From the NCBI RefSeq assembly GCF_054482595.1, contig NZ_JBTHVH010000004.1: a DNA stretch of 64,000 nucleotides. One strand, 5' to 3'. Made by a program: the position numbers and the translations under genes. Positions 22,757 through 24,789 of the stretch are shown in pieces (position 1 is the stretch's first letter; every line of letters starts with the position of its first letter). The stretch is from a plasmid. The notes beneath the pieces are model-generated. The model was given only the letters and a program-made list of their open reading frames with translations. It did not search any database and was not told where the DNA came from.

Positions 22757-23587
22757 ATGGAGTGTAAAATGACTCAAAACCAGGGTTCTGAGCCAGTACC
22801 GGCGAGCCGGACAGGGCAGCTCATCAGCGCCCGGGATATGGCCATGCAGAAATTCGAAGAAGGGATGCGGTTAATCTCGGAAGCGTCGGAACTGTGCGGT
22901 CTCTCTCTCTTCACCAGCAGAATTATGCAGCCCAACGCATTTGGTCTTCCGTCGTCACTGGATCGCACCATCGAGGAGGGGCGTAAGGAAATTGACCGTA
23001 AAACGTGGAAAAGGCTCTTTGAAGAAACAGGTATGGACCGGTACTGGAACCATAAGCAAAAAGAAGCCTTTAACGAATCCCTTCGTACGGATCCGCCCGT
23101 CGCTTCCCTGGAGATTGTTAAGGGAACATTACAGCATGCACTGGCTAACAGACGAGACACCCTTGCAGAAGGTTTCGTTGATGTTCTCAACAAGCTTGAC
23201 CGAAGTTTCAAAAGCAATGCCAGGCAATATACAATGCCAAAAAAGCTTGTTCTTCGGGGGATTTTTCCTGGTGTGAACGTGCTGAGGTACAACGGTTTCT
23301 CGCAGGACAATCACTTTTGTTTACGCGACTTTGAGAATATTGTATGCATCTGTTCTGATACTCCAACACCTGCAACCGGCGGTGGGCTGAGTATGGTCGA
23401 CAGGCTGACGGCCATGAGAAATACAGAATTCACAGGCGAGGTCAGTGATGAGAATGGCTGGCGGTGTCGCCTGTTTGAGAATGGAAACGTTCATATTTGC
23501 ATCGACAGTATCTCGCTTCTGAATGCTCTGAACGATCTTATCAGCATATATTTTGCAAACCAGCTTCCGGCCGCAGGAAAAAAATGA
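22757..23587 (+). CDS. Hypothetical protein (276 aa)
   Basis: ORF track; stop overlaps the next start (ATGA); no family recognised. Confidence 0.5.
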   Translation: MECKMTQNQGSEPVPASRTGQLISARDMAMQKFEEGMRLISEASELCGLSLFTSRIMQPNAFGLPSSLDRTIEEGRKEIDRKTWKRLFEETGMDRYWNHKQKEAFNESLRTDPPVASLEIVKGTLQHALANRRDTLAEGFVDVLNKLDRSFKSNARQYTMPKKLVLRGIFPGVNVLRYNGFSQDNHFCLRDFENIVCICSDTPTPATGGGLSMVDRLTAMRNTEFTGEVSDENGWRCRLFENGNVHICIDSISLLNALNDLISIYFANQLPAAGKK

Positions 23588-24789
23588 TGATTGAAAATGA
23601 TAAAGAAAAAAGCCTGAACGATGCTACCCCGCCAGAGGTGCAGAATGACATCCGCAGCGAATCCACTGAAAAATCAAAGGAAATGGGTCGTTCAAGGTAC
23701 TCATCTATCGCGATGATCGATTACTTCAATGCAATCGAACGTCTGTGCAAAGAGAAAGAAATTAACCCGGAAAATATCGATCTGAGCTTCAAAGTTCACT
23801 GGCTCAGAAACGCTGTTGGCGGCTCGTTTGCAAGGTCACAGGAGATGTTCGCGGAGTACCAGAAGTATGTTAAAGAGGTTCCTGAAGAGGCCCGTTACCT
23901 GGATATACCCGATGAGGTAAAGGTTGCACTCGGCGATATTATCTCGTACATCACCTGGCACTACCGTAGAAGCTATACCGCAATACAGAATGATAGTGTT
24001 AAAAAAGCTGAAGCACGTAGCATGCAGCTGGAGGAGGAGGTAACGCAGCTGTTACAGCGGCTTGAGCAAAGCGCTACCGATATGGATGAGCTGAAACTTG
24101 AGAATCAGGCACTACAGGGTCGATTAGAGATCCGGGACAGTACCGTCAAGGAGTTAGAAACAAGGCTGAATGTTGCCGAAGCAGAACTCGAAACCTGCCA
24201 TCACCAGTTAGATAGCACACGGCATGAATTGAGCCTCGCACAGCAGTCAAATGACTCACTCTCCCAGCAACTGGCTGAACGTAAAACAGAGATCGCTGGT
24301 CACCTTGAATATCAAAAAAAGCTGAACGAAGAGATCAACACGCAGCGTTCTGATAACGCCGGTCTTTCCAGACAATGCGACCAGTTAAGTCAGACTGTGT
24401 CAGATACAAAGGCAGAGAGGGACAGGTTTGAACAGGAATTGATTGCTGCACAGAACCTTTGTACTGAGCTGAAAAGTGCACTGTCCGGGAAAGAGGGTGA
24501 CCTGGTGGCGGTGAATGCCGAGCTTACTGAACTCCATAAACTAAACGAGTCGCTGAGCGCCGACCTGAATAAAGTAACTTTGGTCAGCCAGGGCTATGAA
24601 GCGGAAGTGGCTGAACAAAGCAATGAACTCAAAACGCTCCAGGCCAAAGTAATGAAGCTGGAAGCTACCCTGGAGGCGGAGAAAACAATCTCAGAATCCC
24701 TAAAAGGCACCATTGATACATTAACTGGTGCAATGGCAGGGGGAGGTACTGGAAAGTCAAAACAGCCGCGTAGCAGAAAAACATCATGA
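23584..24789 (+). CDS. KfrA-like protein: short N-terminal domain followed by a long coiled-coil
   Basis: ATG at 23584 preceded by AGGA; N-terminal ...VHWLRNAVGGSFARSQEMFAEYQKY... resembles the KfrA N-domain GGSF signature; remainder rich in heptad-like E/L/Q repeats. Confidence 0.45.
   Translation: MMIENDKEKSLNDATPPEVQNDIRSESTEKSKEMGRSRYSSIAMIDYFNAIERLCKEKEINPENIDLSFKVHWLRNAVGGSFARSQEMFAEYQKYVKEVPEEARYLDIPDEVKVALGDIISYITWHYRRSYTAIQNDSVKKAEARSMQLEEEVTQLLQRLEQSATDMDELKLENQALQGRLEIRDSTVKELETRLNVAEAELETCHHQLDSTRHELSLAQQSNDSLSQQLAERKTEIAGHLEYQKKLNEEINTQRSDNAGLSRQCDQLSQTVSDTKAERDRFEQELIAAQNLCTELKSALSGKEGDLVAVNAELTELHKLNESLSADLNKVTLVSQGYEAEVAEQSNELKTLQAKVMKLEATLEAEKTISESLKGTIDTLTGAMAGGGTGKSKQPRSRKTS

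Follow-up and report, generated by a model that had tools for sequence, protein, structure and literature searches.

A conserved gene pair of IncHI plasmids encodes a standalone DUF4942 protein and a putative, divergent KfrA/TlpA-type coiled-coil protein

We analyzed a 64,000-nucleotide (nt) stretch of plasmid DNA, referred to below as the window (contig NZ_JBTHVH010000004.1 of RefSeq assembly GCF_054482595.1), with attention to two overlapping plus-strand genes that we call ORF-A (22769, or 22757, to 23587) and ORF-B (23584–24789). ORF-A encodes a standalone protein of the Pfam family DUF4942 (RefSeq WP_000193209.1), and ORF-B encodes a protein of 401 amino acids (aa) composed of a head and a long coiled coil (RefSeq WP_001572381.1), which existing records label 'coiled-coil domain-containing protein', 'hypothetical' or 'ATP/GTP-binding protein'. 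The two genes form a conserved pair, and ORF-B is probably a true relative of the plasmid proteins KfrA and TlpA. The overall reading that we put forward, about which we are slightly more doubtful than confident, is that a divergent KfrA/TlpA-type coiled-coil protein is co-translated with a new DUF4942 partner and has an accessory role in plasmid maintenance or establishment. A literature search on both genes, DUF4942 and IncHI KfrA found no study of these genes; what would be new, judging from sequence, is a KfrA/TlpA-type protein, so diverged that the Pfam model misses it, that belongs to a new plasmid group and has a new kind of partner.

The gene pair and its conservation

The preliminary description of this DNA had reported two genes overlapping by ATGA, and this arrangement is plainly visible in the sequence: the TGA stop codon of ORF-A occupies 23585–23587 and the ATG of ORF-B begins at 23584, inside the string ATGATG, with an AGGA Shine-Dalgarno sequence at 23575–23578, within the end of ORF-A and five bases 5' of the ORF-B start (junction 23575–23587, plus strand). 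A 4-nt ATGA overlap is a common operon junction, and in combination with the internal AGGA it suggests translational coupling of ORF-A and ORF-B. The length of 276 aa given earlier for the first protein needs correction, the open reading frame itself being right: the likelier start codon is the ATG at 22769, which has a GGAG six bases 5', is the one chosen by RefSeq, coincides with the start of the homologues and yields 272 aa, whereas the ATG at 22757, from which 276 aa are counted, is without a ribosome-binding site. Similarly, a 430-aa ORF-B frame that begins at a TTG is merely the longest open frame, the actual ORF-B being 401 aa long.

Both genes are under purifying selection. Compared with a 97–99% identical IncHI2A variant (L026), the ratio of nonsynonymous to synonymous substitution rates (dN/dS) was 0.09 for ORF-A and 0.13 for ORF-B, and within ORF-B it was 0.12 in the head, 0.20 in the rod and 0 in the tail, where there are no amino-acid changes at all. 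The pair is kept tightly joined in five IncHI-type lineages over an ORF-A identity range of 54–100%. In the diverged lineages identity is only 54–64% for ORF-A and 26–40% for ORF-B, and each of the ORF-A homologues at 54–64% identity is followed by an ORF-B homologue of 384–406 aa. An equivalent junction is retained in L002, L003, L004, L006 and L026, where the spacing ranges from −11 to +2 nt and the end of ORF-A likewise includes an AGGA, in agreement with the coupling proposed in the preliminary description, and in the loci examined the ORF-B family adjoins only this DUF4942 subfamily. Open reading frames on the antisense strand (e.g. a 178-aa frame at 22774–23310) were rejected as genes, their conservation not being found among homologous loci. 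Because the pair, its junction and the AGGA recur in diverged lineages and the antisense frames do not, we conclude that ORF-A and ORF-B constitute a conserved operon.

The DNA of the pair is present in 1,176 records of the plasmid collection searched and is 100% identical in more than 800 of them. The carriers are mostly conjugative plasmids of 190–370 kb from Escherichia, Salmonella and Enterobacter; among plasmids whose typing was seen, one with a 97–99% identical copy is typed IncHI2A, and diverged copies of the pair reside on the IncHI1 plasmid pHCM1 (S. Typhi) and on one IncHI1B plasmid. Both genes are still labelled hypothetical, although the pair occurs in more than 1,100 sequenced IncHI2-type plasmids of this collection, and the IncHI carriers of the pair are major vehicles of mcr, extended-spectrum β-lactamase and heavy-metal resistance. 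A chromosome-sized record also holds the pair: in L002 (OU349849.1, a 5.46-Mb E. coli record, 5051236–5064090) there is a whole IncHI1-like block consisting of H-NS, DUF6884, DUF4942, coiled-coil, DUF1173, Dcm and thermonuclease genes, which may be an integrated plasmid segment. The DUF4942 cluster of L002 comprises 372 member sequences.

Architecture of ORF-B and its resemblance to KfrA and TlpA

Regions of ORF-B were defined from an alignment of nine full-length relatives. A variable start (residues 1–40), poorly conserved and of low confidence or disordered, precedes a head domain (residues 42–135; 23707–23988, plus strand) in which three short helices and a Pro-containing linker lead up to the first part of a long helix, and which includes the GGSF turn G79-G80-S81-F82 (23818–23829, plus strand). 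Invariant columns of the head are Y47, F48, N64, G79, G80, Y92, P100, P109, W125 and S130. The coiled-coil rod that follows (residues 136–360; 23989–24663, plus strand) varies between lineages in sequence and length, with indels among homologues, and leads to a C-terminal segment (24664–24786, plus strand) made up of the motif LxAEKTISxSLRxTxxxL (361–380), with invariant columns L363, A365, E366, I369, S372, L373, T376 and L380, and a flexible, positively charged tip (381–401). An AlphaFold2 (AF2) run on full-length ORF-B with a 5-sequence alignment predicted helices at 42–57, 63–78 and 82–98 and then a single helix from 110 to 382 with a predicted local distance difference test score (pLDDT) of ~90. 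ORF-B is proline-free from 110 to 394, and a hydrophobic periodicity of 3.5 residues dominates. The head-plus-long-coiled-coil architecture of the preliminary description is supported by this single helix, the missing prolines and the heptad periodicity, and its dimensions are revised: the N-terminal domain of ~110 aa resolves into the poorly conserved, low-confidence residues 1–40 and the conserved head at 42–135, and the coiled coil of about 290 aa becomes one predicted helix at 110–382. The modeled succession of short N-terminal helices and a long, uninterrupted coiled-coil tail is that of KfrA-type proteins.

The earlier description had likened a GGSF-containing stretch to the KfrA N-domain. 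We compared the ORF-B head family by hhalign with an alignment of the heads of KfrA from R751 and from eight diverse plasmids, and obtained a score of 24.8 (P 0.0017, probability 15%) over 68 collinear columns, which was reached by 0 of 200 column shuffles and 0 of 200 seven-column block shuffles. With the combined KfrA and TlpA heads the score rose to 29.4 (P 2.6e-4) over 67 collinear columns, at a probability of 42.6%, which is below the level at which homology is usually accepted; this score was reached by none of 200 shuffles, and a reversed profile and the unrelated ORF-A family scored 13.6 and 16.0, respectively. In the comparison with the KfrA heads, the alignment passes from helix 1 through a 7-residue insertion to the LR..vG-GSF turn, and on through the next helix to a proline-containing linker. 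In pairwise BLASTP, the best alignment of ORF-B with TlpA joined ORF-B 74–180 to TlpA 30–140, that is, the head and neck, at a pairwise E of 0.003 and 26% identity over 112 residues, with LRNQVGGGNPTRLRQIWDEYQ set against LRNAVGGSFARSQEMFAEYQ and then a Pro-containing linker common to both. As the head match is collinear and withstands the shuffle controls, the resemblance to KfrA is real and wider than GGSF, and the head at 42–135 is a candidate KfrA_N-like helix-turn-helix.

Several observations weigh against this relationship. Formal membership of the Pfam family KfrA_N (PF11740) fails because the model misses ORF-B even at E<=10, no match having been found in any of five ORF-B heads by hmmscan against Pfam-A, whereas the TlpA head of pSLT, used as a positive control, matched KfrA_N at E 7.5e-18; to this extent the earlier likening of the GGSF stretch to the KfrA N-domain does not carry through. 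An exhaustive phmmer search with the ORF-B head against 1.84 billion representative proteins found 17 relatives, about eight of them full length, and no KfrA among them. The hhalign match requires the 7-residue insertion in addition to falling short of the usual acceptance level, and the head has a pLDDT below 55 and is unfolded in the AF2 model. On balance, we consider it probable from the sequence comparisons that ORF-B is a true KfrA/TlpA relative. As to how relatives were gathered, a word-indexed search with the ORF-B head gave mostly frameshifted fragments, and loci derived from ORF-A together with the exhaustive search were used instead.

Comparison with the KfrA proteins of IncP-1, IncU and IncW plasmids (R751, RK2 and RA3) extends both the likeness and the differences. 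KfrA and ORF-B are plasmid-encoded and similar in size (308–345 vs 401 aa), and they share short N-terminal helices, a G-GS(F) turn and a long, uninterrupted α-helical tail; KfrA of RA3 also has a basic C-terminal tip (PMC7783346). Both are preceded by inverted or iterated repeats, and each is co-expressed with a partner protein; in RA3 the partner gene kfrC lies upstream of kfrA, as ORF-A precedes ORF-B (PMC7783346, PMC7821693). Unlike KfrA, ORF-B has ~40 extra N-terminal residues and the 7-residue head insertion and gives no significant KfrA_N match; its partner is an α/β DUF4942 protein and not the helical KfrB or KfrC; and it is the second gene of its operon, with a partition operon of the incC-korB type not adjacent. 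TlpA of the Salmonella virulence plasmid pSLT, which gives the best pairwise similarity to ORF-B, is likewise a plasmid protein (371 aa) with a KfrA_N head and a long coiled coil, but it is monocistronic in the pSLT annotation and has no adjoining DUF4942 gene. TlpA is a thermosensing autorepressor.

ORF-A is a standalone DUF4942 protein

The first protein had been left unrecognised in the preliminary description, which does not hold: ORF-A matches Pfam DUF4942 (PF13708) at E 3.4e-26, over 22985–23551. A profile search with ORF-A also reached three proteins of 479–512 aa (P0048–P0050), and ORF-A over its full length is homologous to the N-terminal 280–320 residues of such DUF4942-methyltransferase fusions (460–520 aa; phrog_6263 is a further example), with the alignment running from about residue 20 to the end of ORF-A. 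In the C-terminal halves of P0048–P0050 methyltransferase motif I (EPSAGTG) is found together with NPPF, an amino-methyltransferase motif, and these halves match phage DNA-methyltransferase families. The S-adenosylmethionine-dependent methyltransferase domain is found in the fusions only: ORF-A has neither motif I nor the NPPF motif IV and matched no methyltransferase family in Pfam and family scans. Because ORF-A stops where this domain begins in P0048–P0050, it cannot methylate, and by sequence it corresponds to the non-catalytic half of a family of mobile-element DNA methyltransferases, occurring on its own. The methyltransferase half is short (~190 aa) and has no other recognition domain, and so the DUF4942 half is presumably the DNA-targeting part of the fusions.

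Residues that are invariant in standalone and fused DUF4942 are R26, D80, W84, D191, E193, N242-G-N244, H246 and N259. They are concentrated at D191-x-E193 and within a strand-turn-strand-helix unit (N242-G-N244-x-H246, N259), corresponding to ORF-A residues 191–193 and 235–267 (~23327–23335 and ~23459–23557; numbered from 22757). The layout of the cluster loosely recalls a β-β-α metal-binding finger, and the cluster may be a site of catalysis or of DNA contact. The AF2 model of ORF-A (pLDDT 79.6, predicted template modeling score 0.67) describes an α/β protein that would have a fold of its own, relatives outside DUF4942 not having been found in the PDB or AFDB; sequence searches of the PDB with the ORF-A and ORF-B families gave nothing meaningful.

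A scan of 21400–25300 with Rfam produced one match only, which was below threshold: Hammerhead_HH9 at 22782–22846 on the minus strand, inside the ORF-A coding sequence, with 22.1 bits against a gathering threshold of 52 and E 0.037. We regard it as most likely due to chance.

Palindromes upstream of the operon

The 630-bp intergenic region upstream of the operon (22127–22756) is unalignable between lineages except for three kept elements, P1–P3. P1 (22441–22453; GTGAC-N3-GTCAC) was present in all lineages examined, ~300–450 bp upstream of ORF-A, and occurs once in the window, against 0.01 occurrences expected by chance. P2 (22489–22516), a perfect 10-nt inverted repeat (ATGGGATTTA-N8-TAAATCCCAT), also occurs once. 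P3 (22663–22679; TAGTAAAG-C-CTTTACTA) is placed ~80–95 bp upstream of the ORF-A start and is represented in the window by this copy and a degenerate one, both in the same intergenic region; the degenerate copy (22401–22417) is included in a further inverted repeat at 22394–22424, TAGTCACTAGT-N9-ACTAGTGACTA. P3 is a candidate operator near the promoter. A sigma-70 promoter scan of the upstream intergenic region gave nothing convincing.

At the position of P2, L003 and L004 carry a different perfect 13-nt inverted repeat, CTATGCGATATAA-N6-TTATATCGCATAG; because both arms have changed together, the symmetry of P2 is preserved. The place equivalent to P3 in L002 is occupied by CACTAGTAAAG-g-CTTTACTAGTG. 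In L003 and L004, where both P2 and P3 are altered, the helix after the GG turn of ORF-B reads RIHNAT or RISNAT and not SFARSQ, and the altered helix with the altered palindromes would fit co-evolution of a protein and its site.

In the IncHI2A lineage that carries mcr-9, the palindrome-bearing intergenic DNA is replaced by a region with sil, pco, IS903B, mcr-9, wbuC, qseBC-like and rcnRA genes (L026 1–1185; L027, NZ_CP071018.1 135000–155900), whose end lies exactly 51 bp upstream of where ORF-A starts. At its boundary are an inverted repeat of 9 nt (ACCTACTTA...TAAGTAGGT) and the direct repeat AGACAACTTTAA(A/T)GTCT in two copies.

Proposed function and alternative explanations

We propose that the IncHI plasmid backbone contains in ORF-A and ORF-B a bicistronic operon with translational coupling, in which the helix-turn-helix head of ORF-B, with its G-GSF turn and recognition helix, would bind palindromic DNA as a dimer held together by the coiled coil of ~270 residues. 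The C-terminal motif and the basic tip of ORF-B may serve contacts with a partner or with DNA. By analogy with KfrA and TlpA, the likeliest targets of ORF-B would be the palindromes upstream of its own operon, which would lead to autoregulation. ORF-A, made in step with ORF-B, would probably be its partner and would possibly touch the C-terminal motif. The two proteins together might then act as a DNA-bound scaffold that aids maintenance or establishment, and not as an autonomous partition machine.

The proposal also has to accommodate evidence of the opposite sense. The co-variation of helix and palindromes involves two clades only, and phylogeny is a confounder here. Both genes are intact in the mcr-9 IncHI2A lineage, although the >20-kb sil/pco/mcr-9/rcn region there abuts the operon 51 bp upstream of ORF-A and so parts it from P1–P3. 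It follows that P1–P3 are not strictly required in cis, and it may be the divergent upstream operon that they serve. Contact between ORF-A and ORF-B is inferred, and in profile comparison with KfrC and KfrB of R751 ORF-A reached a probability of 0.1%, on which ground we rejected ORF-A as a KfrB or KfrC. Finally, in the RefSeq annotation a partition operon is not adjacent to the pair.

Should ORF-B be of the KfrA/TlpA type, the family would reach the IncHI group, and DUF4942, a widespread mobile-element domain without known function or structural relatives, would for the first time be placed in a functional context, namely as partner to a DNA-binding scaffold. The value of these results lies mainly in annotation and in the generation of hypotheses: current views are not overturned, and the mechanism proposed is neither surprising nor demonstrated. 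Gene structure, coupling, conservation, domain relationships, the architecture of the rod and the conserved palindromes are shown by the data, and everything functional, that is DNA binding, autoregulation, the interaction of ORF-A with ORF-B and the biological role, is inferred.

Of the competing explanations, the one that survives best, though we think it doubtful, assigns the pair to establishment or anti-restriction, as a module together with the orphan Dcm, DUF1173 and thermonuclease genes; its targets would be plasmid DNA on its way in, or else restriction or defence factors of the host, and transcriptional regulation would not be its main role. It draws on gene order. Downstream of the pair lies a convergent minus-strand trio (25069–28108) made up of a DUF1173 gene (439 aa), an ORF of 55 aa and a cytosine methylase of the Dcm type, and the order DUF4942, coiled coil, DUF1173, 55–59-aa gene, Dcm-type methylase is kept in every lineage examined, including L002, L003, L004, L006 and L016; pair and trio may be one functional block of five genes. 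The Dcm-type methylase scores best as an orphan methyltransferase and as PRK10458. DUF4942-methyltransferase fusions occur in phage replication or early modules (seven viral contigs carry fusions of 464–513 aa, most of them beside replication-like ORFs), the methyltransferase half of the fusions matches modules of giant phage proteins, and another DUF4942 gene sits in an island with KlcA-, RadC- and CbtA-type genes (PMC6980539). Set against this, neither protein matched any PADLOC model except via the coiled-coil arms, ORF-A has no methyltransferase domain, early entry of the region into the recipient is a supposition only, and the similarity of the head to KfrA and TlpA together with the palindromes points to sequence-specific DNA binding, as in the scaffold that we propose.

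Rather unlikely, in our estimation, is that ORF-A and ORF-B are merely adjacent backbone genes of unrelated function and that the KfrA/TlpA resemblance is a convergent one between proteins with a helical head and a coiled coil. Consistent with this explanation, neither Pfam nor the exhaustive searches revealed a KfrA link, the hhalign probability stays below 50%, four-base overlaps are common in general, and DUF4942 genes elsewhere have no coiled-coil neighbour, none being found beside the fusions on the seven viral contigs. Unrelated neighbours would leave unexplained that junction and gene order are kept down to 26% ORF-B identity, that the collinear head match lies above every shuffle and that the ORF-B family is found only beside this DUF4942 subfamily in the loci examined.

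Lower still in probability we place the possibility that ORF-B is a TlpA-like thermosensor, whose coiled coil would melt with temperature and thereby switch DNA binding, so contributing to the temperature-dependent behaviour of IncHI plasmids, with ORF-A as the regulated product or a co-factor. IncHI conjugation is thermosensitive, and the head and neck of TlpA are the best pairwise match of ORF-B. The known thermoregulators of IncHI plasmids are other proteins, namely H-NS/Hha, TrhR/TrhY and HtdA; moreover, the rod sequence is poorly conserved and no target genes were identified. The coiled coils of KfrA proteins do lose helicity in a temperature-dependent manner (PMC7821693). A composite idea, which we likewise judge improbable, would make the pair a two-component plasmid system not described before, with a methyltransferase-derived, non-catalytic DUF4942 module loaded onto or regulated by a temperature-responsive, palindrome-binding KfrA/TlpA-like ORF-B, tying IncHI establishment or maintenance to a low-temperature lifestyle, possibly with DUF1173 and the orphan Dcm.

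That the pair is an autonomous partition system, or a component of defence or of a condensin like SMC, Lamassu or Wadjet, is very improbable and contradicted by the domain analysis: ORF-B matches SMC, LmuB and JetC models, one GenBank record reads 'Chromosome partition protein Smc' and old records read 'ATP/GTP-binding protein', but the matches span the coiled-coil arms only (residues 88–384) and lie far below the cut-offs (e.g. 43.9 vs 567 bits), and ORF-B has no ABC-type ATPase head with Walker A and B motifs flanking the coiled coil, and no hinge. Its similarity to the arms of SMC, MukB, LmuB and JetC and to crescentin is of the generic heptad-repeat kind and compositional, and the matches of full-length ORF-B in Pfam, NCBIfam, PADLOC and PHROGs (SMC, crescentin, LmuB, JetC and tape-measure proteins) were rejected accordingly; the Pfam scan of the full-length protein returned coiled-coil families only among the best 25 of 63 matches. 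The sole P-loop-like string, AGGGTGKS at residues 385–392, sits in the non-conserved tail and is missing from most homologues, and it is probably the origin of the 'ATP/GTP-binding' label, which we rejected along with 'Smc'. An autonomous partition operon would combine a nucleoside triphosphatase motor with a centromere-binding protein, and neither ORF has a nucleoside triphosphatase domain; in the RefSeq annotation the 15 kb flanking the pair on each side are free of ParA and ParB genes, and the block has no ParA, ParM or TubZ gene. With ORF-A being unrelated to KfrB and KfrC as well, the suggestion in the preliminary description that the pair is a partition or segregation module is not sustained insofar as an autonomous one is meant.

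Neighboring genes and plasmid context

The neighbours of the pair are orphan Dcm, DUF1173, thermonuclease, H-NS and HNH genes. The thermonuclease gene (28242–28796) lies beyond the trio in the window and also in L002, L006 and L016, and on an IncW plasmid kfrA adjoins a thermonuclease gene, similar to the neighbourhood of the pair. Between ORF-B and the convergent minus-strand genes there is a GC-rich hairpin (24843–24867), flagged on the minus strand and followed by GAGTTTTCG on the plus strand, which may be a terminator.

On the other side, the divergent upstream gene (21746–22126, minus strand) is frameshifted after ~78 codons, which leaves an open frame of 97 aa; the gene encodes 126 aa in NZ_CP042898.1, and a homologue in pELE1-215 is named 'tgtA5 cluster protein 2'. 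A DUF6884-type gene (~21466–21687) retains its first 60–70 codons, having been truncated by an element of the Tn3 family with a 1009-aa transposase ORF (18450–21479) that ends at 21479, and the plasmid backbone resumes at ~21500.

Seven ORFs of equal length (240 aa, TTG start) are distributed over both strands, at 6846–7568, 9762–10484, 13079–13801, 17034–17756, 38203–38925, 44838–45560 and 62908–63630. They look like copies of one insertion sequence, which we take, as a guess, to be probably IS26, and because of these repeated copies we view the window as a short segment of backbone set in a mosaic resistance region.

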